Assembly (NCBI GenBank): GCA_964442615.1
Contig: CAYUAG010000009.1
Coordinates: 1 to 58,794 of the forward strand
Direction: 5' to 3'
Origin: an uncultured bacterium
Lineage (GTDB): Bacteria > Zhuqueibacterota > QNDG01 > CAYUAG01
Length of the DNA: 58,794 nt
Positions 15,450-58,022 of the stretch are shown in pieces. Under the pieces are notes generated by a model. It saw only the letters and a program-made list of their open reading frames with translations, made no database searches and had not been told where the DNA came from. The position numbers and the translations under genes are program-made. Positions within the stretch are counted from its first letter, which is position 1. Every line of letters begins with the position of its first letter.

Positions 15450-15484
15450 GGTAAAAAGTACCATCTTAATGCCACATTTTTACC
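15450..15484. promoter_or_regulatory. Putative tandem bEBP enhancer sites
   Basis: GGTAAaaaGTACC at 15450 and ccacatttTTACC at 15472, 22 bp apart, about 130 bp upstream of the 15613 promoter. Confidence 0.55.
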
Positions 15485-15612
15485 TACTTTACTATATATT
15501 GTAAAGTGATAGTTTTATATTACTATAAATTTATTTATTTTAAATTTAGCAAAAATAGTATAATAGAATGAACATGATTAGTTTAAATGGACATCTTAAT
15601 TTTTCCTAATAA

Positions 15613-15628
15613 TGGTGTTATTTTTGCA
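15613..15628 (+). promoter_or_regulatory. Sigma54 -24/-12 promoter
   Basis: TGGTGTTATTTTTGCA (GG-N10-GC), upstream of the 15923-19171 gene run. Confidence 0.6.
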
Positions 15629-15922
15629 TATTAAAAGATCAGTAAATTTACTTTAGTAAGTAGAAAGGGAGAAATTTTAATTTAAATAAATCATTACCAA
15701 TACAGTTGCATTGTCTACTTATATATTAGTAAATTTTTATTATATGAGATTTTATCAGTAAGTTGTTAAACGAGTAACGAGTAAAAAAAGAATAGTAGTT
15801 CGAATGAATAATGATATAGTTACGAAACAATATGAAAGTACTACTCTATTTCCAGTAAGTTTAATTCTTGGTAATATAGTGAAAATTTTTTATATATTTT
15901 GATTATGGAGAAGATGTAAAAA

Positions 15923-16528
15923 ATGGAGAAAGATAAAAAAGAAAGTTTAATAGAAAAATTTAATAATGTACTTGTTATTGATGATGATACCTTTATGATA
16001 GATATTCTTTCGCGTTATTTAACTCAATTAGGTTTTAATGTAACAGCTGTTCAGACAGGAGAAGAAGCAGTCAAGACTATTAAAAAGACAAAAATTCATA
16101 TTTCTATAGTTGATTTATTACTTTTTGAGATGGATGGTATTGAACTGATTAATAAATTTAAAATAATTGATGATGAAATGATAATAATTCTCATTACTGG
16201 ACATCCTAGTTTTGAAACTGCCGTAGAGGCTTTAAAGCTAGGAGTACAAGATTATCTTGTTAAACCATTTAAATTGGAACAACTTGATAAAGTCTTGAAA
16301 AAGTCTTTAGAAGAAAAAAAGATGATTATGGAAAATAAGAATTTACGAAAAGAGTTAAAGAAAATTAAGGATAAACTTCAATATTATAAAGAACTTGTTA
16401 ATCAATCTGAAGATATTAAACAATGGGTGACTAATAATTTACAGAAATTGGAAGAGTTGAAAGATAAAGGAATTATTACAGAGGAAGAATACAAACAAAG
16501 GCGAAATAATTTAAATGCAAATAAATAG
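15923..16528 (+). CDS. Response regulator with REC, coiled coil and C-terminal SHOCT-like domain
   Basis: VLVIDDD, IVDL, ITG, VKPF. C-terminus LQKLEELKDKGIITEEEYKQRR matches the SHOCT pattern. Confidence 0.85.
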   Translation: MEKDKKESLIEKFNNVLVIDDDTFMIDILSRYLTQLGFNVTAVQTGEEAVKTIKKTKIHISIVDLLLFEMDGIELINKFKIIDDEMIIILITGHPSFETAVEALKLGVQDYLVKPFKLEQLDKVLKKSLEEKKMIMENKNLRKELKKIKDKLQYYKELVNQSEDIKQWVTNNLQKLEELKDKGIITEEEYKQRRNNLNANK

Positions 16529-16536
16529 GTAATATT

Positions 16537-17802
16537 ATGGTTAGAAAAATATCTGTAAATAATAAAAATGAGGTTTTACCCTTAGCTGAAGCTTTTAATT
16601 CATTTAATAATATAATATCAGATTTGGATTTATCCTATAAAGATTTAAAAGGTAGTATTGAAGAGTTAAATTTGAAGATATCTGAAAAAAATAAATTTTT
16701 AGAAAAAAATTTTTTTGAGGTAAATAGAGTACGCTGCTTTTTTGATTCTATACTGAATAGTATGAGAGATGGAGTCATTGTTGTGGATATGAAAGGAAGA
16801 ATAGTGCTATTGAATAAAAGTATAAAAAAAATGACTGGTTATTCTGATTACGAGGTGATTGGAGAATCTTATAAAAAAATTTTTGGAAAAACAGTAAGTG
16901 AAAGGTTTTCTCCAATCTATACGCTATCACATAATATTCCTCTTGTTATGGAGGAGAAAGAGTTAACAACTAAATCTGGTAAAAAAATCCCTGTTCGTTA
17001 TAGTACTTCTATTGTTTATGATAGTGAAGATGAGGTGATTGGTGTGGTTGAAGTGAGCAGTGATTTGACCAGAATAAAAAGACTTGAAGTTCAGATGCAG
17101 AAGATAAAAACTCAAGCTGCATTAAATCAAATGGCAGGATTGGTTGCTCATGAAATAAGAAATCCTTTGGCTGGTATTAAGGGATATATAGATTTATTAA
17201 AAGAATCGTTTGATAAATCGGACAAAAAGCAAGAGAAAATCAATGAAATATATTCATTAATTAAAAAACTAAATAAGATCGTGGTTAATTTTATGATAAT
17301 GGCACAACCTATTAAACCCAATTTTGTTAAAACCGATATCATAGAATTTATACAAAATGTAACTGATTATTTTTGCTCAAAAAATAATTTAGAAGAAAAA
17401 AAAATAACACTTGATATTTCAATTCCCGAAGGTATGGATACTCTTTTGATAAATTGTGATCCCATATTAATGGAGCAGACCTTAATCATGATACTTGACA
17501 ATGCTGTAAAAGCTATGGACATAGGGGGAAATTTGGGAATAAAACTTAAAACAGAACATATTCAAGAGAGGAGAAAAAGAGAAATAGCCATTATAATTTC
17601 TGATTCAGGTTGCGGAATGTCAAAAGATGTTAAGAATAAAATATTTAATCCTTTTTTTACTACAAGAGATAAGGGAATGGGATTGGGATTATCACTTGCA
17701 AGGAATTTTATTAAGTTTCATGATGGTAATATTTTTGTAGAGAGTGAAGAGGGGATAGGAACAACAGTAAACATAATTTTACCTAAAAGTTATGAGGTAT
17801 AA
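16537..17802 (+). CDS. Soluble PAS histidine kinase, FleS/FlrB-like
   Basis: N-terminal LAEAFNSFN...L..SY..L coiled coil as in FleS-type kinases, PAS SMRDGVIVVD, H-box VAHEIRNPL, GMGLGL. Lies upstream of a bEBP and fliE. Confidence 0.85.
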   Translation: MVRKISVNNKNEVLPLAEAFNSFNNIISDLDLSYKDLKGSIEELNLKISEKNKFLEKNFFEVNRVRCFFDSILNSMRDGVIVVDMKGRIVLLNKSIKKMTGYSDYEVIGESYKKIFGKTVSERFSPIYTLSHNIPLVMEEKELTTKSGKKIPVRYSTSIVYDSEDEVIGVVEVSSDLTRIKRLEVQMQKIKTQAALNQMAGLVAHEIRNPLAGIKGYIDLLKESFDKSDKKQEKINEIYSLIKKLNKIVVNFMIMAQPIKPNFVKTDIIEFIQNVTDYFCSKNNLEEKKITLDISIPEGMDTLLINCDPILMEQTLIMILDNAVKAMDIGGNLGIKLKTEHIQERRKREIAIIISDSGCGMSKDVKNKIFNPFFTTRDKGMGLGLSLARNFIKFHDGNIFVESEEGIGTTVNIILPKSYEV

Positions 17803-19171
17803 AATGGTTAATAGAAAAATACTTGTAGTTGAAGATGATCCAATTCTTAGAAAATTTATTACTGATGTATTGGAAAAAAGAGGAGCTGAGGTAACTCGAT
17901 GTGAAAATGGAGAAAAGGCATTTAAAAAGATAAAGAGTAATTCATACCATTTGATATTAAGTGATTTAAAAATGGAAGGGATGGATGGTTTAGAATTACT
18001 TACAGAGACAAAAAAAATATCACCTTCAACAGAAGTAGTAATAATAACAGCGTATGGTACGGTTTCCAGTGCAGTCGAGGCAATTAAAAAAGGAGCTTTT
18101 GATTATATTACTAAACCCATAGAATTGGAAGAGCTTTATATAGTTTTAGATCGTGTGTTTGAGCATCAGAAACTTATTGATGAGAATAAATATCTAAAAG
18201 AGAGATTGAATAAAAATGATGCTACAAACAAAATTATTGGAAAGAGTCAAAAGGCTCAAAAAGTCAGAGAGCTTGTTGAAATGGTTGGGCCTCTTGATTC
18301 TACTATTCTCATACAAGGGGAAACAGGTACAGGTAAAGAAGTAATTGCTAATTCTATTCGCCAAATGAGTCCGAGAAAAGATGCACCCTTTATTAAAGTT
18401 AACTGTGCTGCTTTACCTGATACTCTTCTGGAGAGTGAGTTATTTGGTCATGAGAAAGGAGCTTTTACTGGTGCTATTCAAAAGTCTAAGGGGCGTTTTG
18501 AACTGGCAGATGAGGGCACTATTCTTCTAGATGAAATAGGTGAGCTTGGTCTTCAAGTTCAAGCTAAACTTTTACGTGTTCTTCAGTATCAACAATTTGA
18601 GCGGGTAGGAAGTGGTATAAGTATTAAAGTTGATGTACGTGTTTTAGCAACTACAAACAGAAATTTAAAAGAAGAAGTAAAAAAGGAAAAGTTTAGAAAA
18701 GATCTTTTCTTTAGATTGAACGTAGTTTCAATTACCAGTACTCCTTTACGTGAACGCAGAGAAGATCTGCCTTACTTTATTGAATATTTTCTACAAATGT
18801 ATAATAAAAAATATAATAAAAAGAAATCCCTTTCAAAAAAAGCCATGGAATTGCTGATTAAGTATGATTGGCCGGGAAATGTCAGAGAATTAGAAAACTG
18901 TATTGAGACTGCTATAATACTTAATCATGAGACAATTTTAGAACCTAAAACTTTTCTTTTTTTAGAGGAAAATCGGGATCTCCTGGAAGAAGGCAGTACT
19001 TTCAATTCCAATATGTCTATTGCTGAAGTAGAGAAACAGTTAATAATTAAAACTTATAGAAAAATGAATCATAATAAAACCCGTACTGCTAAAGTTCTTG
19101 GAATTACAATAAAAACTTTAAGAACAAAATTAAAAGAATATGGGGTTATAGAGTCTAAGAAAAAAGGGTAG
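17792..19171 (+). CDS. Sigma54-dependent response regulator, FleR/FlrC-like
   Basis: REC, GETGTGKE, ESELFGHEKGAFTGA, LLDEIGE, WPGNVREL and HTH. Position is directly before the flagellar genes. Confidence 0.92.
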   Translation: MRYKMVNRKILVVEDDPILRKFITDVLEKRGAEVTRCENGEKAFKKIKSNSYHLILSDLKMEGMDGLELLTETKKISPSTEVVIITAYGTVSSAVEAIKKGAFDYITKPIELEELYIVLDRVFEHQKLIDENKYLKERLNKNDATNKIIGKSQKAQKVRELVEMVGPLDSTILIQGETGTGKEVIANSIRQMSPRKDAPFIKVNCAALPDTLLESELFGHEKGAFTGAIQKSKGRFELADEGTILLDEIGELGLQVQAKLLRVLQYQQFERVGSGISIKVDVRVLATTNRNLKEEVKKEKFRKDLFFRLNVVSITSTPLRERREDLPYFIEYFLQMYNKKYNKKKSLSKKAMELLIKYDWPGNVRELENCIETAIILNHETILEPKTFLFLEENRDLLEEGSTFNSNMSIAEVEKQLIIKTYRKMNHNKTRTAKVLGITIKTLRTKLKEYGVIESKKKG

Positions 19172-19201
19172 AAAATACTCTTTAAATAGTGAAATATTTC
19201 C
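19167..19201. promoter_or_regulatory. Putative tandem bEBP enhancer sites
   Basis: GGTAGaaaATACT at 19167 and GTGAAataTTTCC at 19189, 22 bp apart, about 120 bp before the 19320 promoter. Confidence 0.5.
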
Positions 19202-19206
19202 TGGTT

Positions 19207-19248
19207 GGTCTTACCTTAATATTTTATATTAAGGTAAGACCTTTTTTT
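19207..19248 (+). terminator. Intrinsic terminator after the FleR-like gene
   Basis: Perfect 16-bp stem GGTCTTACCTTAATAT-ttt-ATATTAAGGTAAGACC followed by T7. Confidence 0.85.
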
Positions 19249-19319
19249 AAATTATTTTAAATTACTGATAATAAAATATTTATAAAACTCTAAATATTAA
19301 TTAGAGAATAGTGTATTGT

Positions 19320-19335
19320 TGGCATACCCCTTGCT
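19320..19335 (+). promoter_or_regulatory. Sigma54 promoter for fliE-flgD
   Basis: TGGCATACCCCTTGCT, near consensus. Confidence 0.85.
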
Positions 19336-19398
19336 TGAATTTTCTAATGGAATATTATAGATAATTAAGAAAGCCATAAAAATTATAAGGAGGAACAA

Positions 19399-19686
19399 GT
19401 GAATTCAATTTCAAATATTTCCGGTAAAAATCAAAATTCTGCATTTCCTATAAAAGAACCAGTACTGGTCGATAAAAATTTCAGTAAAACAATAAAATCA
19501 GCTTTACATGTGATTAATAATCTCATTCACGATTCTGGTGAAACTGTTAAGAAAATGTCTAAAGGAGAGATTAATGATATTCAAGATATGATGATAGCAG
19601 CTGAGAAAACCTCAATAGGTTTAGAATTAGTAGTTGAGGTCAGAAATAAACTGTTAGAATCATATTGCCATACATTGGGATTGTAA
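19399..19686 (+). CDS. fliE: Flagellar hook-basal body protein FliE with an aberrant C-terminus (possible pseudogene)
   Basis: F...K.A...N...GE..D..D.MIAAEK.SI.LE..VEVRNKLLESY is FliE-like. The usual QEIMRMQV-type end is replaced by CHTLGL. GTG start with AGGAGG RBS. Confidence 0.85.
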   Translation: MNSISNISGKNQNSAFPIKEPVLVDKNFSKTIKSALHVINNLIHDSGETVKKMSKGEINDIQDMMIAAEKTSIGLELVVEVRNKLLESYCHTLGL

Positions 19687-19803
19687 GTGTAATTTTTGTT
19701 TTAGTAATTTTGGGAGTTTTTGTAATGGATTTCATAGGTTCAGTAGAATCAAAGAATACAGTTGTCATGAAATATGTATATCAATAAGAGGAGGTGAGGT
19801 AAT

Positions 19804-20466
19804 ATGAGTACAGGACAGATCAATCAGGTAATTCAATCTCAACAGCAACAAATTAGTACGATTCAGTTCCAACAGTTAAGAAGATATACTTTTTTGAATC
19901 TTTTATTTACCCGGCTTAGTAATCAGAAGCCCCTTAATCTAATGGAAAATACAGAGTTTATTACTCAGTTGACAGAGATTAGTTCATTGGAACAATTGTA
20001 TTCAATCAATGAATCTTTGTTAGTAAGTCATAACATTAATAATTCAATTAATAGTTCATTGTTGACAAATTTACTCGGTAAAGGAGTTAAAGTAAAAAGT
20101 AATATTATCCACTATTCTGATGAATATACTCCTGGAATTGGGTATGATTTAGCAAAAAGTGGAAATATTTTTATACAAATATCTAATAGTTATGGAGAAG
20201 TAATTAGAAACATTGATCAGGGAATTCAAACTGCTGGTGAATATAGTGTAGAGTGGGATGGAAAAGATAAATCTGGAAATAAGGTAGAAGAAGGTAATTA
20301 TACCTTCAAAGTAGTAGTCCAGGATAGGGAAGGTGAGACCGAAGTAAGAGTTACATATTTAATTGGGAAAATATCAGGAGTAAAATTTAAAGATAGAAAT
20401 CAGGTTTTATTTATGGGAGATCAACCTGTTGATAGTTTAAAAATAATGTATGTTTGTATGTCTTAA
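19804..20466 (+). CDS. flgD: Flagellar hook-capping protein FlgD with degenerate motifs
   Basis: FLNLLFTRLSNQKPLNLMENTEFITQLTEISSLEQL resembles FL.LL..QL.NQDPL.P.D..EF..QLAQFS.LEQ. Ig domain WDGKDKSG....GNYTF. Confidence 0.88.
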   Translation: MSTGQINQVIQSQQQQISTIQFQQLRRYTFLNLLFTRLSNQKPLNLMENTEFITQLTEISSLEQLYSINESLLVSHNINNSINSSLLTNLLGKGVKVKSNIIHYSDEYTPGIGYDLAKSGNIFIQISNSYGEVIRNIDQGIQTAGEYSVEWDGKDKSGNKVEEGNYTFKVVVQDREGETEVRVTYLIGKISGVKFKDRNQVLFMGDQPVDSLKIMYVCMS

Positions 20467-20555
20467 ATTGTATTTTTAAATCTAATCTTAATTTTATCAT
20501 CCTCTCTTGTTTATAATCTTAAAAATTTTAATATTTTATTTTTTATTAATAATAA

Positions 20556-20590
20556 GTTAGAAAATACACCCCTAATAGTAAATTTTTAAC
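20556..20590. promoter_or_regulatory. Putative tandem bEBP enhancer sites
   Basis: GTTAGaaaATACA at 20556 and GTAAAtttTTAAC at 20578, 22 bp apart. 20555-20594 matches 19166-19205 at 28/40 positions without gaps. Confidence 0.45.
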
Positions 20591-20707
20591 TGGTCATTTT
20601 TTTATATTATATGTTAAGTGGTAAACAGTCTGTATTGTTGAGATTGTAAGTTTTTTAAATTTAAATAATTATATCACTCATAATATATTTTGTAATTGGT
20701 CTATTAT

Positions 20708-20723
20708 TGGCATATTGCTTGCT
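20708..20723 (+). promoter_or_regulatory. Sigma54 promoter for fliN
   Basis: TGGCATATTGCTTGCT (GG-N10-GC). Confidence 0.85.
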
Positions 20724-20846
20724 TAATAAAATATATTGGAAATAGAAATAGGGTAAAAAAATATTTAATGAGAAAAGTAACCAAGTAGTATAATTTCTTG
20801 CTTTTGGGAGTGAATGTTAGTGAAAAAATAAAAAGGAAATAAGACT

Positions 20847-21287
20847 ATGCAGAATATGGAAAATAAAAAGAAGAATATTGGAGAGAAGAAGAATAAAAAA
20901 CAGGATGTATTTTTTCAGAACAAAAAATTTACTACTATGGATGCAAAAAATAAGAAAGAAAATATAAACGAGCAGCAGTTTACTCTTGTTAACTTTAGTG
21001 AAAGAAAAGTTAAATCTGAAGATAATATTAATAGATTAATGGATCTGGAACTTCCTATATCGGTGGAATTAGGCAGAAAACGTTTGTTGGTAAAAGAGAT
21101 ACTTGAATTAGAACCTGGGGTAGTAATTGAGTTGAAAAAGTTTTCAGGTGAGCCCGTAGATATTTATGTTGATAATAAGAAGTTTGCAGAAGGGGAAGTA
21201 GTTAAAATAGAACAGAATTTTGGAGTAAGGATAACCGCCTTAGTGGGACCTGATGATCGGTTACCCAGGTTAGATAAGCATAAATGA
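20847..21287 (+). CDS. fliN: Flagellar motor switch protein FliN (SpoA domain)
   Basis: LMDLELPISVELGR...KEILEL.PG.VIEL.K..GEPVDIYV..K.FAEGEVV....NFGVRI. Confidence 0.92.
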   Translation: MQNMENKKKNIGEKKNKKQDVFFQNKKFTTMDAKNKKENINEQQFTLVNFSERKVKSEDNINRLMDLELPISVELGRKRLLVKEILELEPGVVIELKKFSGEPVDIYVDNKKFAEGEVVKIEQNFGVRITALVGPDDRLPRLDKHK

Positions 21288-21515
21288 GTTTAATTAAGTG
21301 AATATTTGGATTAGTAAAAAAAATATATTTTTTGATAAACTGAGTGTTTGTGTAGATTACCAAATTTCGGTTTAGTAACCAAAGTTAGAATGTTTATTTA
21401 ACGCAGAGTGCGCAGAGACAATTTAGTTTTTTTAGTATTGGTGGCCTTTGCGTTGAGAAGGAAATTTTAATAGATAAAACATATTATCATTTTTAGTTAG
21501 TTTTAAAATACAGTG

Positions 21516-21550
21516 ATTAATTATTTCCTAGTTAATAGGTAATTTTTTCC
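21516..21550. promoter_or_regulatory. Putative tandem bEBP enhancer sites
   Basis: ATTAAttaTTTCC at 21516 and GGTAAtttTTTCC at 21538, 22 bp apart, about 90 bp before the 21642 promoter. Confidence 0.55.
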
Positions 21551-21641
21551 AGTATTTTTTTACCATTTATCAGTTTTTAAAAAGTAATACTATATATTAA
21601 ATAATATTAAGGATTTAGAAAACATTAAAAAATTATTGAAA

Positions 21642-21657
21642 TGGCATGTCATTTGCT
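21642..21657 (+). promoter_or_regulatory. Sigma54 promoter pointing into the sensor-phosphatase array
   Basis: TGGCATGTCATTTGCT (GG-N10-GC). Confidence 0.82.
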
Positions 21658-21753
21658 TGTAGTAATAAATTGAGATGATGTTTTAAGAACAACCAAAAGT
21701 ATTCTGTAGTTGTAATTGATATTAATTAGAAGGTTCTTGAAAAAACCAAAATC

Positions 21754-22251
21754 ATGAATCCAGTTTTGATTTTAGAACATTCTCATGAGCAAGTTAGTAC
21801 TACCCTGAAGCAACAGAAAAAAGCAGTGGAAAACCAGAATAACATGGATGTGTGTCTCTGTGTTTTAGAGAAAAACGGTGGTCAGCAACTGTTATTTGCC
21901 GGAGCTAAGCGTTCCCTGTATATCATAAAACGAGGAGAGAATACACTAACTGAGATAAAAGGAGACCGAAAGTCCATTGGAGGAAGGCAGCGGGAGGAGG
22001 AGCGGGTATTTACCGGACATGAGCTTAAGGTTCGGAAAGGAGACAGGTTATACTTAACCACAGACGGATTTGCTGATCAGCAGAATTCAAAGAACAGACG
22101 ATATGGATCAAGACGGCTGAAAACTTTTCTACAGTCAGTTTCTGAGCTGGAGATGCAGGAGCAGGAGAAAGTATTAGCTCAGGAATTAGCCAGACATCAG
22201 GGTAAGGAGGAACAGCGGGATGATATTACGGTGGTAGGGGTGAAGATATGA
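21754..22251 (+). pseudogene. Array unit A0: C-terminal fragment of a SpoIIE/PP2C phosphatase
   Basis: Starts mid-domain at the internal Met of the paralogs' KIMNP. Lacks VSGDFY and DCTGHG, and DGMD has become NNMD. The 3' half is nearly identical to the paralogs (TTDG, RDDITV). Confidence 0.85.
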
Positions 22252-22269
22252 ATAACAGAATGAACAAGA

Positions 22270-25200
22270 GTGAAATATACAGGGAATCTGTTTGGAAGAG
22301 AACAAAGCTGTTCAATTTTTTTTTATTGTACGATTTTAATGATGAAAAGGAGTAATGTGATGATGTTATGTTCAAGATTATTTTTACAATTAAAACTAAA
22401 ACTACAATTAGTATGTGTTGTATTTGTAATTAGTTTACCTGTTGTACTGTTTTCAGAAAATAATATCCATTTTGAAAATATTTCTGTTGAACAGGGGCTT
22501 TCTCAAATTTCAGTCAATTGTTTGCTTCAGGACAGGAATGGATTTATGTGGTTTGGAACCCTAGATGGACTCAATAAATATAATGGCTATAACTTCAAAA
22601 TTTATCAATATGAGATAAAGGACCCCAGTACATTATCTCATAACTCTATACTTTCAATCTTTGAAGATCGATCCGGTTTGATATGGATTGGTACGGATGG
22701 GGGCGGTCTTAATAGATATGATCCTAAAACAAATCAGTTTAAACATTATAAATATGATCCCCAAAATGCTCATAGCATCAGTGATAACAGGGTGACTGCC
22801 ATATTTGAAGACAAATCGAATATACTCTGGATTGGAACAATAAATGGCCTCAATAAATTTGATCCCAAAGAACAGCAGTTCTTTCGTTATTTCCATGATC
22901 CAGAAAATACCAACAGCCTGGGGAATAATTATATTCAATGTTTATGTGAAGTCCAAACAGGTGACATCTGGATTGGAACAGGTGGCGGTGGGATATCTGT
23001 CCTGAGTCGGAATAACCAAGGTAAAGATCAGTTTACCCATATCAAACGGGATCCAAAAAATCTCAGCAGTTTGATCAATAATACTGTTAACTCAATTCTT
23101 CAAGACAACACGGGGATGATATGGATCGCAACTAATGGAGGACTGGATAAATATGATCCGGGAAAAAAACAATTTACCCATTTCCAAAATGATCCAGACA
23201 ATCCCAAAAGCCTGATTAATAATACTGTTAACTCAATTCTTCAAGATAGCACAGGGATGATATGGATCGGAACTAATGGAGGACTGGATAAATATGATCC
23301 AGGAAAAGAACAATTTGTCCACTATATGGATGAATCTTTTTCTATCACAACATTTTGCAAGGATAGAACAGGTGTTCTTTGGATAGGGACCATTGGCAGT
23401 GGGATCTATAAATTTTATAGAGAAAAAGAAAATTTTCTCCATTACAATCGAGATCTTTCTGATACCAATAGCTTGATCAGCAATGTGGTATGGTCTTTTT
23501 GTGAGGATAGCCGGGGAATACTATGGATTGGAACTGTGAGTGGACTGGATCAATTCGATCGTTCTAAAAACCAATTCATTCACTATACAAATGACCCTCA
23601 AAATCCAAACAGTTTGAGTAACAATGATGTCAGATCAATCCATGAAGATCAAAGTGGAGCCCTTTGGATCGGAACCAGCGGAGGGGGGCTGAATAAACTG
23701 AACAGAGACCGAAACCAATTTAAAAGATTTCTGAATAATCCCCGTAATCCCACCAGTTTGAGTCATAATTTTGTCTCAATAATCTTTGAGGATAGAAAAA
23801 AAATGTTATGGATTGGAACCTACGGTGGTGGTTTGAATAAATTTGATCGACACAAAGGAGAGTGTACCCGTTATGTGAAAGATCCAAATGATATCAATAG
23901 TCTGGCACACAATTATGTTAATGTCATTTATGAAGACCGTACCGGGAAACTCTGGATCGGCACCCGCGGTGGGCTGGATAAATTTGATCAACAGAACAAC
24001 TGTTTTATTCACTACAAAAATGACCCGGATAATCCCAATAGCCTGAGTTATAATTTGATTTTTTCTATCCTTGAGGACCAATCAGGTATGTTGTGGATCG
24101 GGACATATGGAGGTGGATTAAATAGATTAAATCCCAGAACAGAAACATTTACTCATTTCACAGAAAAGGATGGGCTTCCAAATGATGCTATTTATGGGCT
24201 TCTTATGGACAAAGCTGGAAATATTTGGATAAGTACAAATAATGGGTTGTCACAATTTAATCCAGAAACACAAATATTTAAAAATTTTAATATAAGCGAC
24301 GGACTGCAAAGCAAGGAATTTGATAGAGGAGCATATTATAAAAGCATAAGAACGGGAGAAATGTTTTTTGGTGGCGTTAATGGTTTTAATGCATTTTTTC
24401 CTGATAAAATTAAAGATAATCCATTTATTCCTCAGATTGTCATAACGGATTTTAAGTTATTCAATACATCTGTTTTGATTGGAGAAAAGATTGATGATCG
24501 AATCATCTTGACGAAAAGCATAACAGAAACAGACAAGATTGAAATCTCTTACAAACAAAATGTTTTATCCTTTGAGTTTGCCGCGTTACATTATATCTCC
24601 CCGGAAAAAAATCAATATGCATATATGATGGAAGAACTGGATAAGGATTGGAATTATGTGAACAACCGGCGATTTGCCTCCTATACAGGTATTCCTCCAG
24701 GTAAATACACTTTCAGAGTTAAAGCCTCCAATAATGATGGGGTGTGGAATGAAAAGGGAGCATCCATTAAAATAACCATTACTCCTCCTTTTTGGCAGAC
24801 CTGGTGGTTTCGAACTTTGATAGCAATTTTTATTATAGGAATTGCTTTCAGCTGGTATAAGATGAAAGTTAGAAACCTGGAAAGACAGAAACAGAAACTT
24901 GAAAAGCAGGTTAAGGAGAGGACTACCGAAATTCGACATAAGAATAAACAACTTGAGAAAAAGAATGAGCAGATCTTAAGCAGCATCCGCTACGGAGAGC
25001 GTATTCAGAATGCTATTTTACCCCTGACTGAAAAGATACGATCTTCTATACCTCAACACTTCATTCTTTATAAACCAAGAGATATTGTCTCCGGTGATTT
25101 TTACTGGTTTAATCAAATTGATGGGAAGATAGTATTAGCTGTGGTAGACTGTACTGGTCATGGAGTACCAGGAGCCTTCATGTCAATGATGGGTAATGCT

Positions 25201-42006: not shown

Positions 42007-42077
42007 TGATTGATATGAAGTTAAAATAATAATTTTCAGCATGGAGAATATGTTTTAGAAAATGAAAGGGGGATATT

Positions 42078-46562: not shown

Positions 46563-46628
46563 CTAAGTGAACTATCTAACCTAAATTTAAGCTTCAGATT
46601 ATTTAAGTAGAACTGATTTCAACAATTA

Positions 46629-49970: not shown

Positions 49971-50020
49971 AAATAAAGAGCAGACTTAATCAATTTGTTA
50001 GTTTCACAAAATATGTACAG

Positions 50021-53000
50021 GTGATTTTTAACAGAAGAAATACTATGCACATAAAGCTATTTGGGAATGAAAAAATTAATTGGAATGTGATTTTTTATTT
50101 ATGGATACTCGAATTTATTTTTATTGAGCCTGTTTATGTACAGTCAGGAAGGGATATCCGTTTAGAACAGATTTCCCTTGAACAGGGCTTGTCCCAAGTT
50201 ACAGTCAATTGCATACTTCAAGATAGACAGGGTTTCATGTGGTTTGGGACCCAGGATGGATTAAACAAGTATGACGGTTATCAATTTACAGTGTACCGCC
50301 ATGAACCAAATGATAGTACAAGTTTAAGTTATAATCTTATTTTATCGATATTTGAAGATCAGGACGGGTATCTGTGGATTGGTACTGAGGGAGGAGGATT
50401 AAATAGATTCAATCCTAATACTGAATCCTTTATTCATTATAAGAATCAAATTGGAGACTCACTCAGTCTTAGTAATAATTCTGTTTATTCCATTTTAGAG
50501 GATACCAGAGGTAACTTGTGGGTAGGAACTTATAATGGATTAAATAAGTTTGATCGAAACTTAAAAAAAATTATTCGTTATCAGAACCAGCCTAATAATC
50601 CCCATAGTTTGAGTCATAACAGAATTTCATTTATATTGGAAGATCACAATGGTAATCTGTGGATTGGAACGGAACATGGATTAAATAAATTTGAACAAAA
50701 TTCGGAATCTTTTATTTCTTACCTGAATAATCCTGATAATTCTCTAAGCCTTAGCAATAATAATATCAAGTCTATATTAGAGGATTATAGAGGTAACTTG
50801 TGGATTGGCACTTTTGGTGGTGGATTAAATAAATTCAATATAAAAACTGAAACCTTCACCAGTTACCAAAATCAAGTTGATAATCCCAACAGCCTTAGTA
50901 ATAATTTTATCATGTCAATTTTTGAAGATTCCAGAAACAACTTGTGGATTGGGACTTCTGGTGGTGGGATAAACAAGTTAAATCCAGAATCGGAGATTTT
51001 CATAAACTATCAGCACAAGCCTAATGATCCTAAAAGTCTTGGTAATAACATAGTAATGCCAATTTTTGAAGATAGAGGAGAAAATCTGTGGATAGGAACT
51101 ATTGGAGGCGGATTGAATAGGTTTGATCCTAAGACTGAATCCTTTACTTGTTATAAACACCAAGTAAATAATCCTTATAGTCTCAATAATAATTTTGTGT
51201 TGTCGATTTTTAAAGATTCGAATGATGACCTGTGGATCGGAACAGCTGATGGTTTAAATAAATTTAATCCACTAACAAAGATCTTTACATTATATCAGCA
51301 CTACAAGGATGATCCACATAGTCTTAGCCTTAACAATGTTATGTCTATTATTGAAGATACAGATGGCAGCTTGTGGATTGGGACTTATGGTGGTGGATTA
51401 AATAAATTCGATCGTAAAACTGAAACTTTCATCTGCTATAAGAACCAGGATGGCAATCCTGAAAGTCTAAGTAATAACTTTGTGTTAAGACTTTTGAAAG
51501 ATTCGGAAGGAATTTTATGGATTGGGACAAAAAATGGTTTAAATAGATTTGATGAAAAAACAGAAACTTTTACTCATTTTTGGCACCAAACTGATAATCT
51601 CCATAGTCTTAGCCATAATAATGTATATTCTATTTTTGAAGATTGCAGTGGAATCCTTTGGTTTGGGACACAAGATGGATTAAATAAATTTGATAGGAAG
51701 TCAGAAACCTTCACTCAATATAAAAATCAGGTTAATAATCCCCATACAATAAGTCATAATTTAGTCAGGTCGATTTATAAGGATGCCGAAGGTAACCTGT
51801 GGATTGGGACAGATGGCGGATTAAATAAACTTGTCCCGAGTGATAACGAGGGATCTCCCCCAACCTTCACTTGTTACAGAGAAAAGGATGGTTTGTCAAA
51901 TGATGTTATATATGGAATTCTTGAGGATGATAATGGTTGTTTATGGTTAAGTACCAATAAAGGAATTAGTAAGTTTAATCCTGAAATTAATTCCTTCATT
52001 AATTATGATGTAAAAGATGGTCTGCAAAGTAATGAGTTTAATACAGGTTCATGTTATAAGGATGGAAATGGTCAAATGTATTTTGGTGGAGTAAACGGTT
52101 TCAATGTTTTTCACCCTGATAGCATAATGAATAATACATATGTGACACCTGTAGTTATTACAGATTTTTTGCTATTTAATAAACCAGTGAAAGTATCCCG
52201 AAATGGCAACAAATCCGACCGGTTTGAACTACAGAAACACATAAATTTCATAGGAGAAATAACTTTAGATTATACGGACTACATTTTTGCTTTTGAATTT
52301 TCAGCTTTGAATTACCGGCAATCGGAAAAAAATCAATTTGCCTATAAATTAGAAGGTTTTAACAAAGAGTGGATTAAAACAGATCATCTTCACCGCAGAG
52401 CGACTTATACGAATTTGCCTCATGGCGAATATGTATTCAGAGTAATAGCTTCAAATGATGATGGCTATTGGAACGAGGAAGGTACCAGTATTACGTTGAC
52501 CATCCTTCCTCCATTTTGGAAAACCTGGTGGTTTCGAAGTCTGATTATTGCGTTCATTGTAGGGAGTGCTTTTAGTTGGTATAAAATGCGGGTTAGAAAT
52601 CTGGAGAGACAGAAACAGAAACTTGAAAAGCAGGTTAAAAAAAGGACAATAGAAATACGTTATAAGAATAAACAACTTATGGAGAAGAATAATCAGATAC
52701 AAGAAAAGAACGAACAGATCTTAAGCAGCATCCGATATGGGGAGCGTATTCAAAATGCTATTTTACCCCTTGCCGAAAAGATACGATCTTCTATACCCGA
52801 ACATTTCATTTTTTTTAAACCAAGAGATATTGTTTCAGGTGATTTTTACTGGTTTAATCAACTAGATGGAAAAACTGTTCTGGTTGTGGTTGACTGTACT
52901 GGTCACGGTGTGCCTGGAGCCTTTATGTCCATGATTGGTAACATTGTGCTCAACGAGATTATTATCGAACAACAGATTACTAATCCTAAAAAGATTTTAG

Positions 53001-53479
53001 AGCGTCTTCATGAAGAAGTACGAACTGCCTTAAAACAGGAACAAGAAGAAGGTGTTACCCAGGACGGTATGGATGTGTGTCTCTGTGTTTTAGAGAAAAA
53101 TAGTCATAAACAAGAGCTTTTATTTGCCGGAGCCAAGCGTCCCTTATATATTATAAAAAAAGGTGAGATTGAACTTATTGAAATAAAAGGTGACCGTAAG
53201 TCAATAGGGGGGAGGCAGCGGGAGAAAAATCGGGTATTTACCAGTCATGAGATAGAGGTTCAGAAAGGAGATCAGTTATATCTGACTACAGATGGTTTTG
53301 CAGATCAGCAGGATTCAAAGAACGGGCGGTATGGATCAAGGCGTTTGAAAACTTTTCTCCAGTCAGTTGCTGAGCTGGAAATGAAGGAGCAGGGAGAAGT
53401 ATTAGCTCGGGAAATAGCCAAGCATCAGGGTAGAGAAGAACAGCGGGATGATATTACAGTGGTTGGGATAAAGGTGTGA
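50021..53479 (+). CDS. Array unit A8: propellers, Y_Y_Y, TM, PP2C
   Basis: Blade repeats with NPNSL-type loops, YTNLPHGEYVFRV, PPFWKTWWF, intact PP2C motifs. Confidence 0.93.
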   Translation: MIFNRRNTMHIKLFGNEKINWNVIFYLWILEFIFIEPVYVQSGRDIRLEQISLEQGLSQVTVNCILQDRQGFMWFGTQDGLNKYDGYQFTVYRHEPNDSTSLSYNLILSIFEDQDGYLWIGTEGGGLNRFNPNTESFIHYKNQIGDSLSLSNNSVYSILEDTRGNLWVGTYNGLNKFDRNLKKIIRYQNQPNNPHSLSHNRISFILEDHNGNLWIGTEHGLNKFEQNSESFISYLNNPDNSLSLSNNNIKSILEDYRGNLWIGTFGGGLNKFNIKTETFTSYQNQVDNPNSLSNNFIMSIFEDSRNNLWIGTSGGGINKLNPESEIFINYQHKPNDPKSLGNNIVMPIFEDRGENLWIGTIGGGLNRFDPKTESFTCYKHQVNNPYSLNNNFVLSIFKDSNDDLWIGTADGLNKFNPLTKIFTLYQHYKDDPHSLSLNNVMSIIEDTDGSLWIGTYGGGLNKFDRKTETFICYKNQDGNPESLSNNFVLRLLKDSEGILWIGTKNGLNRFDEKTETFTHFWHQTDNLHSLSHNNVYSIFEDCSGILWFGTQDGLNKFDRKSETFTQYKNQVNNPHTISHNLVRSIYKDAEGNLWIGTDGGLNKLVPSDNEGSPPTFTCYREKDGLSNDVIYGILEDDNGCLWLSTNKGISKFNPEINSFINYDVKDGLQSNEFNTGSCYKDGNGQMYFGGVNGFNVFHPDSIMNNTYVTPVVITDFLLFNKPVKVSRNGNKSDRFELQKHINFIGEITLDYTDYIFAFEFSALNYRQSEKNQFAYKLEGFNKEWIKTDHLHRRATYTNLPHGEYVFRVIASNDDGYWNEEGTSITLTILPPFWKTWWFRSLIIAFIVGSAFSWYKMRVRNLERQKQKLEKQVKKRTIEIRYKNKQLMEKNNQIQEKNEQILSSIRYGERIQNAILPLAEKIRSSIPEHFIFFKPRDIVSGDFYWFNQLDGKTVLVVVDCTGHGVPGAFMSMIGNIVLNEIIIEQQITNPKKILERLHEEVRTALKQEQEEGVTQDGMDVCLCVLEKNSHKQELLFAGAKRPLYIIKKGEIELIEIKGDRKSIGGRQREKNRVFTSHEIEVQKGDQLYLTTDGFADQQDSKNGRYGSRRLKTFLQSVAELEMKEQGEVLAREIAKHQGREEQRDDITVVGIKV

Positions 53480-53488
53480 GAAATATAA

Positions 53489-56400
53489 ATGGATCAGGCA
53501 ATGAAAATTAAATTTATTCACTTTAACAATATTTCCTTTTGGAGACTTAGGTTTATTATTATAATTACAGTTTTGTTGGGTCCAATTACTGGCTTGGCGC
53601 TTGATCCAAATAAGGCTGTTACACAATATAGTCATGATGTGTGGCAGACAGAGGACGGTCTTCCACATGAAAACATTATAGCTATAATCCAAACACACGA
53701 CGGTTACATCTGGCTGGGGACACCAGTGGGGCTCGTCCGTTTTGATGGAGTACGGTTTACTCTATTTGATAAGAGTAATACAGCTAACATAAAAAATAAT
53801 AATATTACAGAACTTTTTGAGGACAGAGAAGGAACGCTTTGGATTGGTTCAGAGGGTGGATTATACCAATTGAATGATGGGGAATTTACCTTATATACTG
53901 TGAAAGATGGCTTATCAAGCAATTACATTAGGTCAATCTATGAAGATAAGGAAGGGAGTCTCTGGATAGGCACATACGGTGGCGGGGTAAATCGATTGAG
54001 AGATGGAAAATTCACATTTTACACTACACAAGAGGGTTTGTCTTACGATTATGTGATGTCTATCTGCGAGGACCGAGAAGGGAATCTTTGGATTGCCACA
54101 CAAGGACGTGGGCTTAATCGACTAAAAGATGGGAAAATTACTACTTATACCACTCAAGATGGTTTGTCTAATGATGTCGTGATGTCAGTCTATGAGGACC
54201 GGGAGGGAAATCTCTGGATAGGCACATACGGTGGCGGGGTAAATAAACTACAAGACGGAAAATTTACTTCTTATACTACCTCAGAAGGCCTGTCGCATAA
54301 TTCTGTTATTTCAATTGTTGAGGATAAAGATTGGAATCTGTGGATTAGCACTGATGGAGGGGGGGTGAGCCGGCTAAAAGATGGAAATTTTTCCACCTTT
54401 ACCACTAAAGACGGTCTGTCTAACAATACAGTACGGTCAATCTTTGAGGATAGAGAGGGGAGCCTTTGGATAGGCACATATGGGGGTGGATTGAACCGAC
54501 TTAAAGATGGAAAATTTACAACATACACTTCAAAAGAAGGGTTGTCTGGCGAACTTGTGATGTCAGTTTATAAGGACATGGAAGGCAGCCTTTGGCTTGG
54601 CACATCCGTTGGTGGCATAAATCGATTCAAAGATGGAAAATTTACAGCCTACACCACAAAGGAAGGGCTTTCGCATAAAATTGTGACGTCGATCTATGAA
54701 GACAGAAATGAAATCCTATGGATTGGTACACTAGGTGGCGGAATTAACCGATTTAAAGACGGAAAATTTACAATTTATGCCAGAAAAGAAGGACTGTATA
54801 ATCCCTATATAAGGTCACTCTGTACAAGTAAGGATGGTAGTCTTTGGATTGGCACACACGGAAGCGGACTTTTCTGCATGAACGATGAGAAATTTATAAA
54901 TTACACCGTAGAAGATGGTCTTTCTAACGGTATTATATGGTCAATATATGAAGACAGAAAAGGCTTCCTCTGGGTTGGCACAAATGGCGGGTTGAACCGA
55001 TTCAAAGACGGGGAATTTACAGTCTACACCACGAAAGAGGGATTATCTGACGATATCGTACTATCAATATATGAGGATAGAGAAGGAAACCTCTGGGTTG
55101 GTACACATCATGGCGGGCTAAATCTATACAGAGATGGGGAATTTACAACATATACAAAGCAAGAAGGACTGTATGAGGAAAGCATTTTTAAAATCCTCGA
55201 AGATAACAAAGGAAACCTCTGGATGAGTTCTATAAAGGGCATCTTCAGAGTCTGCAAAAAAGAACTTATTGATTTCGCCGATAGGAAAATTAAGTCAATT
55301 AATTCTTATGCTTATGACAAGGCAGATGGAATGAAGAGTAATGAATGCACTATTGGTTGCCCTGCAGGATGGAAAAGCAGTGATGGAAAATTATGGTTTC
55401 CGACTATGAAAGGTCTGGCAATGATTGACCCGGAAAATATAAAAACAAATGAACAGCCCCCACCTGTGATACTTGAGCAAATCATTATTGACAATGAATT
55501 AATTGACCTGGAGGAGAATGTCCCGTTCTCTCCGGGCAAAAAGAAATTTGAGTTTCACTATACTGGACTGAGTTTTTTGGTACCTGAGAAGGTTAAGTTT
55601 AAATACAAATTAGATGGATTTGATAAGGACTGGATAGACGCTGGTACACGCCGAACGGCTTATTACACCAACATTCCACCTGGGGATTATACATTTAAAG
55701 TTATTGCTTGTAATAACGATGGAGTATGGAATGAAACCGGTGCTTCCTTTCACTTTTATTTAAGATCCTATTTTTATCAGACGAAATGGTTTTATGGTTT
55801 ATGTGTTTTGTCCTTATTATCAATGGGATTTATGATTTACCGGTTACGAGTTCGACAATTGACGGCCCAGAAGAAGAAACTTGAAATAAAAGTAACAGAA
55901 AGGACAAAAGAGATCAGGGAACAGAAAGAAATTATTGAGCAAAAGAAGGAACAACTCCAAGAGAAGAACGAGCAAATTACGAGCAGTATCCGATACGCAA
56001 AACGTATTCAACAAGCGATTCTACCATTGGATGAAAGAATTCAATCTTTTCTGCCGGAACATTTTATCTTATATAAGCCGAAGGACATTGTCTCTGGTGA
56101 TTTCTACTGGTTCAATCAAATCAATGGTAAGATCCTTCTTGCGGTTGTGGACTGCACGGGTCACGGCGTACCCGGCGCTTTCATGTCCATGATCGGGAAT
56201 ATCCTGTTGAATGAAATCGTCAATGAGCTGCACGTCACCGATCCGGCATTGATTTTAGAGAATCTGCATATAGGTGTACGTTCTGCCTTAAAGCAGGAGA
56301 ATGGAGAGACTAATACAGATGACGGCATGGATATTTGCTTATGCGTTTTGGATAGGAAAATGAAAAATGTTGTCTTTGCTGGTGCAAAGCGTCCGCTTTA

Positions 56401-56746
56401 TTTAGTAAGGGGAAATAATCACGGTTTAGAACAATCTGAAATCATAGAAATTAAAGGGGATCGGAAGTCAATCGGTGGAAAACAAAGAGAAAAAAGACGC
56501 ACCTTCACGAGAAGGAAAATCAAAATTCAAGAAGAAGACGAAATTTATCTGATGAGTGATGGGTTTATCGATCAATCGGATACTGAGAATAGAAAATATG
56601 GAACGAAGCGAATGAAGAATTTCTTAGAGTCGATTGCGGGATTGGATGTTGAAAAACAGAAAGAAGCATTACTTCAGGAATTGGTGAACCATCAGGGAAA
56701 GGAAGAACAGAGGGATGATATTACCGTGGTGGGAGTAAGGGTGTAA
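53489..56746 (+). CDS. Array unit A9: short-blade propeller subtype, Y_Y_Y, TM, divergent PP2C
   Basis: ALDPNKAVTQY, 42-aa blades, YFYQTKWF. PP2C has YAKRIQQAILP, DCTGHG, DDGMD, MSDG, RDDITV. Confidence 0.93.
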   Translation: MDQAMKIKFIHFNNISFWRLRFIIIITVLLGPITGLALDPNKAVTQYSHDVWQTEDGLPHENIIAIIQTHDGYIWLGTPVGLVRFDGVRFTLFDKSNTANIKNNNITELFEDREGTLWIGSEGGLYQLNDGEFTLYTVKDGLSSNYIRSIYEDKEGSLWIGTYGGGVNRLRDGKFTFYTTQEGLSYDYVMSICEDREGNLWIATQGRGLNRLKDGKITTYTTQDGLSNDVVMSVYEDREGNLWIGTYGGGVNKLQDGKFTSYTTSEGLSHNSVISIVEDKDWNLWISTDGGGVSRLKDGNFSTFTTKDGLSNNTVRSIFEDREGSLWIGTYGGGLNRLKDGKFTTYTSKEGLSGELVMSVYKDMEGSLWLGTSVGGINRFKDGKFTAYTTKEGLSHKIVTSIYEDRNEILWIGTLGGGINRFKDGKFTIYARKEGLYNPYIRSLCTSKDGSLWIGTHGSGLFCMNDEKFINYTVEDGLSNGIIWSIYEDRKGFLWVGTNGGLNRFKDGEFTVYTTKEGLSDDIVLSIYEDREGNLWVGTHHGGLNLYRDGEFTTYTKQEGLYEESIFKILEDNKGNLWMSSIKGIFRVCKKELIDFADRKIKSINSYAYDKADGMKSNECTIGCPAGWKSSDGKLWFPTMKGLAMIDPENIKTNEQPPPVILEQIIIDNELIDLEENVPFSPGKKKFEFHYTGLSFLVPEKVKFKYKLDGFDKDWIDAGTRRTAYYTNIPPGDYTFKVIACNNDGVWNETGASFHFYLRSYFYQTKWFYGLCVLSLLSMGFMIYRLRVRQLTAQKKKLEIKVTERTKEIREQKEIIEQKKEQLQEKNEQITSSIRYAKRIQQAILPLDERIQSFLPEHFILYKPKDIVSGDFYWFNQINGKILLAVVDCTGHGVPGAFMSMIGNILLNEIVNELHVTDPALILENLHIGVRSALKQENGETNTDDGMDICLCVLDRKMKNVVFAGAKRPLYLVRGNNHGLEQSEIIEIKGDRKSIGGKQREKRRTFTRRKIKIQEEDEIYLMSDGFIDQSDTENRKYGTKRMKNFLESIAGLDVEKQKEALLQELVNHQGKEEQRDDITVVGVRV

Positions 56747-56767
56747 ATAGAGTAAACATCATATTTT

Positions 56768-57667
56768 TCATTCAAGAATAAAGTTAAAAGGATCTTGAGG
56801 AATATCATTATAGAAAACACCATAATGAAGATGAGGGGAAGTCGATTTGCCACTATTGCCAGTTAAACCGATTTCATCCCATCGTTCAATTTTTTGACCT
56901 ATTTTGACATGAATTTCTGATAAATGGGCGTAGAGTGTTTTATACCCAAAGCCATGATTTATTATTATGAATTTTCCATATCCTTTATTTTTTATAAAGT
57001 TTTCCCTGACAGCAACTATAGTTCCTCCACCAGTTGCTATTATTTTTGTACCAATTTCTGTACAGATATCTATTCCGGGATGTTCAACAGTTTTATTTGT
57101 AAATGGATCTTTTCTTTTACCAAAAGTTGATGAAATCCATCCTTTTCTAACAGGTCTAATGGAAGGATAGTGTGAAATTTTAAACATGCTCGAAGAAATA
57201 TTTTCTTTTAAATGAGACATGCTTTTATTTAACCAATTGATTTCATTTTCTATTTTTGATAATTCCATCTCTGTTTTTATGATTTCGGGATGATTAAAGT
57301 TTTTTAAAGATGGATAACTTTCTGGCCCTCCTACACCATATTGGATATTAGTGGTAGAATTTGGAGAGAGTATACTTATTTTTTTGTTTTCTTTTTTTAA
57401 TTTATTTAAATGCATTAAAATGGAATCAGTTCTGTCCTGCCATGAACTAAATTTTATCCGTAATAAATTATTTTCATTTTTTAAATTATAGATTTTAAAT
57501 TCATTAACACCTTTAAATAGAAATTGTGCTAAAGGTAATGATATTAGAATGAATATCACTAATAGAGTTATTAACATAAGTAAACCCTTTAACCTTGATA
57601 GATATGTACTGTATGATTTTTCACTTTCTGTTTCAATAAGTGTTAAAATGTAATGTTTTTTAGCCAT
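56768..57667 (-). CDS. M23 family metallopeptidase (peptidoglycan endopeptidase) with N-terminal TM and coiled coil
   Basis: ISSTFGKRKDPF, HPGIDI (HxxxD), GYGKFIII.H, YAHL, TGNSGKSTSPHLHY (HxH). Confidence 0.93.
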   Translation of the reverse strand: MAKKHYILTLIETESEKSYSTYLSRLKGLLMLITLLVIFILISLPLAQFLFKGVNEFKIYNLKNENNLLRIKFSSWQDRTDSILMHLNKLKKENKKISILSPNSTTNIQYGVGGPESYPSLKNFNHPEIIKTEMELSKIENEINWLNKSMSHLKENISSSMFKISHYPSIRPVRKGWISSTFGKRKDPFTNKTVEHPGIDICTEIGTKIIATGGGTIVAVRENFIKNKGYGKFIIINHGFGYKTLYAHLSEIHVKIGQKIERWDEIGLTGNSGKSTSPHLHYGVFYNDIPQDPFNFILE

Positions 57668-57709
57668 TTTTTCCTTTAATTTTATTTAATTATTTTTATA
57701 CTTACTTAT

Positions 57710-57725
57710 TGCAAATATAGTGCCA
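57710..57725 (-). promoter_or_regulatory. Sigma54 promoter for the M23 peptidase
   Basis: Minus strand TGGCACTATATTTGCA is a perfect TGGCAC-N5-TTGCA, 43 bp before the start codon. Confidence 0.9.
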
Positions 57726-57863
57726 TAATTATATATAAAGTAGTTAGTTGCTGAATTAATATTTTAAGAATTTTAGTATTTTTTGAAACAAATAATATTG
57801 TAAGGTTAACAAAAAGATAAACTATAATTTTTTAAATTAAATTTGTTTAGATGATATTATTGT

Positions 57864-57898
57864 GGTATTTATTTCCTATATATCTGGTAATGTTTACC
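57864..57898. promoter_or_regulatory. Putative tandem bEBP enhancer sites shared by the divergent promoters
   Basis: GGTATttaTTTCC at 57864 and the perfect palindrome GGTAAtgtTTACC at 57886, 22 bp apart, between the two promoters. Confidence 0.65.
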
Positions 57899-58006
57899 TA
57901 AATTTTTTTTAATTTTATTTAATATATTAGATAAATAATATAAAAATAAATAATAAAAAATAAATACTTAGCAGGAAATTATATAATTCATTTTAAAAAT
58001 AAATCA

Positions 58007-58022
58007 TGGCATGTGGTTTGCA
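58007..58022 (+). promoter_or_regulatory. Sigma54 promoter for flgN
   Basis: TGGCATGTGGTTTGCA (GG-N10-GC). Confidence 0.85.

Follow-up and report, generated by a model that had tools for sequence, protein, structure and literature searches.

Paired dyad-symmetric boxes upstream of sigma-54 promoters in a contig of an uncultured bacterium, a candidate enhancer for a linked NtrC-type activator

In enteric bacteria, the NtrC enhancer of glnAp2 consists of two dyad-symmetric sites located more than 100 bp upstream of a -24/-12 promoter, with the consensus TGCACC-N5-GGTGCA and with the two strong sites about three helical turns apart. NtrC is a regulator of REC-AAA+-HTH (helix-turn-helix) architecture with a cognate kinase, and its dimers, bound on one face of the DNA, nucleate the active oligomer. 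In flagellar systems the gene orders fleSR-fliE and flrBC-fliE are known, FlrC sites lie downstream of the start site, and FlbD is controlled by FliX, not by a linked kinase, and also represses via ftr sites. The present analysis concerns a window of 58,794 nucleotides, i.e. the whole 58.8-kb contig C9 of the metagenome-assembled genome G000 of an uncultured bacterium (3.58 Mb, 35% G+C, 146 contigs, 86% complete), in which pairs of 13-bp boxes spaced by 22 bp lie upstream of sigma-54 promoters. These pairs are likely to be upstream activating sequences bound by the NtrC-type activator encoded at 17792-19171, which is named here bEBP2 (for bacterial enhancer-binding protein).

According to the available passages of PMC3930126, the kinase and NtrC-type activator pairs FleS/FleR in Pseudomonas, FlrB/FlrC in Vibrio and FlgS/FlgR in Campylobacter and Helicobacter drive sigma-54 basal-body promoters, FlgR of H. 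pylori is enhancer-independent and without a DNA-binding domain, and FlbD of Caulobacter is a sigma-54 activator acting at repeated ftr elements of flagellar promoters. For AtoC, PMC3118216 describes binding to a pair of adjacent 20-bp sites that precede a sigma-54 promoter, with the motif GCkATrCrrnnATTTrCwCA. For the candidate division KSB1 lineage, a literature search returned no description of the present motif or of sigma-54 control or enhancers among the matches listed, relevance being judged by title.

Paired boxes and sigma-54 promoters in the window

A first-pass annotation of this DNA had proposed six GG-N10-GC promoters and, upstream of them, five box pairs, one of which is common to two divergent promoters. 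All six promoters were found by a regular-expression search combined with a weighted scan, and the five pairs read as described there. A full match to TGGCAY-N5-TTGCW is present at five promoters, and the promoter at 15613 reads TGGTGT-N5-TTGCA. No further strong sigma-54 site was found in the intergenic DNA of the window by either search, the weighted scan giving lower-scoring matches at 1963 (+), 15485 (-) and 20697 (+). A scan for sigma-70 patterns showed no excess, with 36 found versus a shuffle mean of 38.4. The boxes, promoters and one hairpin are listed below by coordinates and strand.

15450-15484: box pair before the activator's own operon, with the strong box 15450-15462 GGTAAAAAGTACC (12.6 bits) and the weak half-site box 15472-15484 (-5.6 bits)
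15613-15628, +: sigma-54 promoter TGGTGTTATTTTTGCA, the weakest, before the genes for a response regulator with a SHOCT tail (RR-SHOCT), a PAS histidine kinase and bEBP2
19167-19201: box pair GGTAGAAAATACT, 9 bases, GTGAAATATTTCC, overlapping the bEBP2 stop codon
19207-19241, +: hairpin resembling an intrinsic terminator (stem of 16 pairs followed by a T run), between boxes 19167 and promoter 19320
19320-19335, +: sigma-54 promoter TGGCATACCCCTTGCT before the fliE-like and flgD-like genes
20556-20590: box pair before the fliN-like gene
20708-20723, +: sigma-54 promoter TGGCATATTGCTTGCT before the fliN-like gene
21516-21550: box pair before the phosphatase array, with the weak box 21516 (5.1 bits) and the strong box 21538 GGTAATTTTTTCC
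21642-21657, +: sigma-54 promoter TGGCATGTCATTTGCT before the SpoIIE-domain gene and the run of large genes up to 56746
57710-57725, -: sigma-54 promoter TGGCACTATATTTGCA before the M23 peptidase gene
57864-57898: best box pair, GGTATTTATTTCC, 9 bases, GGTAATGTTTACC, common to two divergent promoters
58007-58022, +: sigma-54 promoter TGGCATGTGGTTTGCA before the flgN-like gene

The start-to-start distance is 22 bp in all five pairs. The edge of the proximal box lies 93-140 bp from the promoter GG, in agreement with the placement of about 90-140 bp upstream given previously, and for the five plus-strand promoters the distance from the start of the pair to the T of TGG is 126-163 bp. The pair at 57864 is 143 bp from promoter 58007 (141 bp in the relatives G002 and G009), and its far edge is 173 bp from the divergent promoter 57725 (-). 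The symmetrised consensus over 32 boxes is GGTAAWNWTTACC, which agrees with the GGTAA-N3-TTACC-like motif first noticed; the outer G/C stands at 84% and A/T at positions 4 and 10 at 95%. The copy at 57886 is a perfect palindrome (GGTAATGTTTACC), as had been claimed for the best one. Since the hairpin 19207-19241 sits between boxes 19167 and promoter 19320, the enhancer of the fliE-like operon would overlap the 3' end of the activator transcript. One arm of this hairpin contains TTACC and its other arm GGTAA; compared with a box the arrangement is reversed, which may be due to chance or be a further site.

The centre of the consensus is AT-rich and several boxes are half-sites, as might be expected if the pairs were chance matches in AT-rich intergenic DNA. 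A crude genome-wide count of GGWA-N5-TWCC pairs by spacing is in line with this, as it showed no excess at 22; none is expected, however, because the regulon has only about seven sites. A matrix made from the window's own ten boxes was discarded as circular, its own sites coming out on top by construction. Two matrices made from other genomes were used instead. In the first, of 38 columns and built with the window left out from six orthologous elements that follow bEBP2 in other genomes, the pair at 19167 ranked first (38.3 bits) and the pair at 20556 second (34.5 bits) of the 7,154,894 positions of G000, and the best match outside the window reached 21.4 bits, inside dnaA (C51 20440). In the second, generic one, a symmetric 13-mer that draws on 22 boxes taken from other genomes and was applied to pairs 22 bp apart, 57864 ranked 1, 19167 ranked 5, 21516 ranked 7, 20556 ranked 20 and 15450 ranked 504 of 3,577,885 positions, and the pair at 21516 has no orthologue in the training set. 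The genome scan for the spaced pair, suggested in the first-pass annotation, thus brought the window pairs out with the generic matrix but gave no peak at 22 with the crude consensus.

Among the top 20 pairs of the genome, a strong sigma-54 promoter lies 126-153 bp downstream at exactly the four window pairs in this set. Twelve of the 16 others are inside open reading frames (ORFs) of more than 200 codons, and one within an ORF on C47 is accompanied only by a weak match to a loose promoter pattern. The high-scoring matches at C51 20440 (in dnaA), on C4, C55 and C47 and others in ORFs, which are without a sigma-54 promoter, were set aside as chance. One good box with a weak promoter 252 bp away was also seen at C45 10383.

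Enrichment over AT-rich intergenic DNA, on which the proposal had been made to depend, was evaluated with 1159 non-coding windows of 200 bp from outside C9 as background. Empirical P values were 0/1159 for 57864, 0.0009 each for 19167, 20556 and 21516, and 0.023 for 15450, and the best pair in each of the five upstream regions fell at the coordinate noted earlier. Seven of the ten single boxes score above the 99.9th percentile of the genome; no other 13-mer in the five upstream regions does so. At the other intergenic sigma-54 candidates of G000, the best pair reached at most 7.9 bits in 14 of 15 cases, even with spacings of 21-23 allowed. These high ranks with matrices from outside the window, the empirical P of at most 0.0009 in four regions, the scarcity of such pairs at other sigma-54 promoters and the fact that boxes are kept across families while spacers vary contradict an origin by chance for four of the five regions, and make it extremely improbable overall.

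Conservation of the boxes and their candidate binder

G000 was compared with 40 relative genomes. Orthologues of bEBP2 with 58-74% identity are found in 12 genomes that belong to other families within the order, and partial orthologues also in G030 and in G002 (88%), whereas a wider homologue search with the activator protein yielded mostly paralogues (39-49% identity) and one true orthologue. At most of the orthologue loci, the stop codon is followed by a similar element of 35-38 bp, with a sigma-54 promoter about 150 bp further on. This element stands directly after the bEBP2 orthologue in nine of the ten loci showing the downstream promoter, L010 having a weak proximal box only, and it does so both where a fliN-like gene comes next and where flgB does. 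The mean pairwise identity over seven such sites is 0.74 in the boxes versus 0.61 in the spacer. The pair before the M23 gene is kept at a spacing of 22 bp in G002, which belongs to the same genus, and in G006, G012, G025 and G009, with a varying 9-bp spacer; over six genomes the corresponding identities are 0.80 and 0.44. The distance from the start of the pair to the promoter is conserved as well, at 141-164 bp for orthologous promoters.

Only two of the five sites have an orthologous region in same-genus genomes; the assembly of G002 is interrupted within the activator gene, and the same-genus genomes G001-G003 gave no flgD match. The site at 15450 is nevertheless kept in G002 together with its TGGTGT-type promoter (TGGTGTCATTTTTGCA, the counterpart of 15613), and three boxes in 22-bp phase, the additional one being the farthest upstream, precede the kinase-activator operon there (L149, G002:C126, ~7700-7790). 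The activator's own operon had been counted as part of its regulon; this conservation favours its inclusion, but the site is the weakest of the five pairs in the window by both P and rank. The RR-SHOCT gene is absent in G002 between the hybrid kinase and the PAS kinase.

Two further sigma-54 promoters, in L022 (G007, 9076+) and L025 (G013, 18976+), precede a gene for a cysteine-rich zinc-ribbon-like protein of 62-63 amino acids just after the fliN-like gene; the window contains no such gene. By eye, both have a pair at 22 bp with similar boxes and unrelated spacers. The matrix scan recovered the one in G013 and chose a different, low-scoring pair in G007.

The six promoters initially assigned to the regulon all stand, but a seventh with boxes had been missed. 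It lies on contig C85 at 13873 (-), where the strong sigma-54 promoter TGGCATATTGATTGCT precedes the gene for a CheY-like protein of 123 amino acids and further receiver-domain genes, and a good box pair with a spacing of 21 is found about 160 bp upstream (~13873-14040, -). Identical boxes precede the orthologous CheY-like gene in L150 (G002:C1, 15250, -). In G002 this gene lies 2 kb beyond flgN, on a contig that also holds the M23 gene, and C85 is therefore probably the continuation of the end of the window.

Upstream activating sequences of NtrC-family activators lie at ~80-200 bp before -24/-12 promoters and comprise two or more dyad-symmetric sites in helical phase, and the boxes conform to this in each respect. 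rpoN, whose presence the first-pass annotation presupposed, is found in G000 on C114, and sigma-54 activators with a DNA-binding domain are encoded as well, both local ones carrying HTH_8. The available data support a conserved cis-regulatory element that goes together with sigma-54 promoters, and an enhancer role appears well supported by the comparative evidence.

The binder is the less certain part. The recognition helix GITIKTLRTKL is invariant in the 12 bEBP2 orthologues, and pairs of at least 9.8 bits occur before the M23 orthologue in seven of ten genomes with a bEBP2 orthologue and in none of nine without. On linkage, co-occurrence and this invariant helix, bEBP2 is supported, though not proven, as the best candidate binder. 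Nine true activators with full sigma-54 interaction domains are encoded in G000, two of them in the window, and the enhancer might instead belong to one of the seven encoded elsewhere or to bEBP1 (10934-12310), which also has HTH_8 and whose cluster is syntenic with that of bEBP2 in several relatives. Against bEBP1, its recognition helix is different (ISRTTLISRL), its gene is adjoined by neither a sigma-54 promoter nor a box pair, three box-carrying genomes, G007, G009 and G013 (92-95% complete), yielded no bEBP1 orthologue, and G021, which has bEBP1 only, has no boxes before M23. We regard another activator as unlikely.

Conserved dyads at a fixed promoter distance do not by themselves give the identity of a binder, and a repressor, an anti-activator partner or an architectural protein could in principle bind them and modulate the promoters. 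The position of the boxes, 93-140 bp from the GG, their helical phasing and their exclusive tie to -24/-12 promoters fit activator sites, however, whereas for a repressor one would rather expect a site overlapping the promoter. Nor does any other DNA-binding gene show consistent linkage across the examined loci, which leaves such a protein a distinctly poor candidate.

Several observations weigh against a single regulon of bEBP2. Three of the ten boxes are weak and below the 99.9th percentile, namely 15472 (-5.6 bits), 21516 (5.1) and 20556 (6.3), and L004, L010, L011 and L013 keep only one clear box. G030, G007 and G013 have a bEBP2 orthologue without a good pair before the M23 gene, and the best M23 pair of G019 has a spacing of 23. 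With nine activators in the genome, the assignment to bEBP2 would rest on linkage and on co-occurrence in non-independent relatives, and the counts overstate independence because the genomes are kin. Finally, the 38-column matrix ranks 21516 at 294, 15450 at 551 and 57864 at 65,488; the sites therefore split into subclasses, and these could have different binders.

Taken further, this split would mean two regulators with a similar half-site, one for the fliE/fliN/flgB-type 38-mer and one for the GGTAA-N3-TTACC-type sites of M23/flgN, the phosphatase array and the own operon. The sharpness of the separation (ranks 1-2 for the first class) and an ATA conserved in the fliE-type spacer and not in the others are consistent with it. 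However, a matrix from fliE/fliN/flgB-type boxes alone recovers the M23-type pairs, with the 22-bp spacing in six of seven, both classes have spacing and promoter distance in common, and the C85/G002 site mixes features of the fliE-type and M23-type classes. Two separate regulators are thus very improbable.

If bEBP2 is the binder, each 13-bp box (GGTAAWNWTTACC) would bind one of its dimers via the C-terminal Fis-type helix-turn-helix, and the spacing of 22 bp, or about two helical turns, would place two dimers on one face of the DNA. The PAS histidine kinase (16537-17802) would phosphorylate the receiver domain, upon which the dimers would assemble into an active AAA+ ring that loops to the closed sigma-54 holoenzyme complex and promotes open-complex formation. 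The predicted targets are the activator's own operon, the fliE-like and flgD-like genes, the fliN-like gene, the ~35-kb run of sensor PP2C phosphatase genes, the divergent M23-peptidase and flgN-like genes and, probably, the CheY-like operon on C85. The site before its own operon would provide positive autoregulation of the circuit. We infer the identity of the binder, one dimer per box, control by phosphorylation, looping and autoregulation from what is known of the NtrC family, as given in passages of PMC3930126.

Gene order and flagellar context

Genes in the window were named from Pfam, and those of the activator operon (15923-19171) also from NCBIfam. They are arranged as follows.

4-1527: protein with a type IX secretion C-terminal sorting domain, at the contig start
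7724-7796: tRNA gene
7975-10941: hybrid kinase
10934-12310, +: bEBP1, the second local NtrC-type activator, with HTH_8
12485-13197: two single-domain receivers
13583-15424: another hybrid kinase
15923-16528, +: response regulator with a SHOCT tail, first gene of the operon
16537-17802, +: PAS histidine kinase, same operon
17792-19171, +: bEBP2, NtrC-type activator (REC, sigma-54 AAA+, HTH_8), last gene of the operon
19399-19686, +: fliE-like gene
19804-20466, +: flgD-like gene
20847-21287, +: fliN-like gene
21754-22251, +: short SpoIIE-domain gene
22270-56746, +: nine very large Reg_prop/Y_Y_Y/SpoIIE (PP2C) genes and one short Reg_prop gene
56768-57667, -: M23 peptidase gene
58154-58678, +: flgN-like gene

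The tRNA gene is the sole match of an Rfam scan of the window, and the box pairs fall under no known RNA family there. Two adjacent ORFs, 5433-6818 and 6901-7362, both match the sodium:neurotransmitter symporter family in Pfam, the second covering only the C-terminal part of the profile; they are possibly one frameshift-split gene or a duplicated fragment. At the other end, an open frame running off the contig (58628-58792, -) shows an H-x-C-x-x-C ... HH pattern and resembles, by eye, an HNH nuclease fragment. The M23 peptidase has 44% identity to the protein of its closest named relative, from candidate division KSB1.

The eleven same-strand genes from 21754 to 56746 (+) are separated by gaps of -4 to 74 bp and lie behind a single sigma-54 promoter, 21642. 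The nine large proteins, of 1085-1762 amino acids, contain Reg_prop beta-propellers, Y_Y_Y, sometimes GAF/PAS, and a C-terminal SpoIIE/PP2C phosphatase, and by its predicted domains the region is a ~35-kb array of paralogous sensor phosphatases. A copy 68% identical to it is located at the matching place in G002.

The only flagellar-type genes present in G000 are the fliE-, flgD-, fliN- and flgN-like ones. A family search of this 86%-complete genome did not find rod proteins (PF00460), flagellin (PF00669), FlhA (PF00771) or FliF (PF01514), and the regulon is therefore probably not an ordinary flagellar one. FlhA and FliF are found in the same 13 of the 41 genomes, and within the order only in G006, G012, G019, G024 and G030; as the genomes are incomplete assemblies, those lacking them are genomes in which they were not found in the searched sequence. 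G012, G019 and G024 provide the three loci in which a box-bearing promoter was seen before flgB-flgC-fliE. Each of eight genomes in which FlhA and FliF were not found (G000, G007, G008, G009, G013, G014, G025 and G027) has exactly one FliMN_C match, and this orphan FliN-like gene adjoins bEBP2 in seven of them and M23 in G025, so that the circuit seems to outlive the flagellum in several lineages.

It is conceivable, though we put it forward tentatively and as somewhat short of an even chance, that several lineages lost the flagellum and kept the kinase-activator pair, the boxes, the sigma-54 promoters and an orphan FliN-like gene (here also the FliE-, FlgD- and FlgN-like and M23 genes), and that the circuit was reused, here including the ~35-kb operon of ten or eleven sensor PP2C (SpoIIE-type) phosphatases. 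If so, the boxes would be the signature of a flagellar checkpoint regulon persisting after the flagellum itself was gone, and the locus would clearly exemplify a flagellar regulatory circuit kept without its organelle. The analysis in any case yields a testable DNA motif, a candidate regulator and a putative regulon of seven promoters for an uncultured lineage.

Comparison with known systems

The label "FleR-like" attached to the 17792-19171 protein was not borne out, even though this protein remains the best candidate for binding the boxes. bEBP2 is below every NCBIfam equivalog cut-off, scoring 441.6 bits versus 714 for AtoC, its best model, 352.1 versus 750 for FlbD and 318.2 versus 750 for FlgR, and no FleR or FlrC model is among the best 25 of the 111 NCBIfam families matched. 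By these scores bEBP2 is not demonstrable as FleR, FlrC, FlgR, FlbD or AtoC. The best model for the kinase 16537-17802 is AtoS, with 278 bits versus a cut-off of 646.

The AtoS/AtoC system of the E. coli atoDAEB operon is thus alike in providing the best-scoring models and in its paired upstream sites. However, the scores are far below the cut-offs, and, as far as the excerpts of PMC3118216 go, the AtoC motif is unlike GGTAAWNWTTACC and the target genes differ. With FlbD and ftr, the locus has in common repeated elements at sigma-54 promoters, but the FlbD model score is 352 versus 750, and control is by FliX in that system and presumably by a linked kinase here.

The kinase-activator-fliE order resembles fleSR-fliE and flrBC-fliE. 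The FlgR, FleR and FlrC systems serve flagella, whereas the search of G000 gave no match to FlhA, FliF, rod proteins or flagellin; where relatives are flagellated, the promoter behind the bEBP2 orthologue is predicted to drive flgB-flgC-fliE. The same module of kinase, activator, boxes and promoter is kept in genomes where FlhA and FliF were not found, standing there before the orphan FliN-like gene and, in G000, also before the very large sensor phosphatase array.

With NtrC at glnAp2, the layout is alike, and the box sequence is different, as is the spacing, about three turns there versus two here. The proposed mechanism itself is textbook; what is new is this example of it, and its wider interest lies in the flagellum-less setting and in the giant phosphatase operon that would be under the same control.

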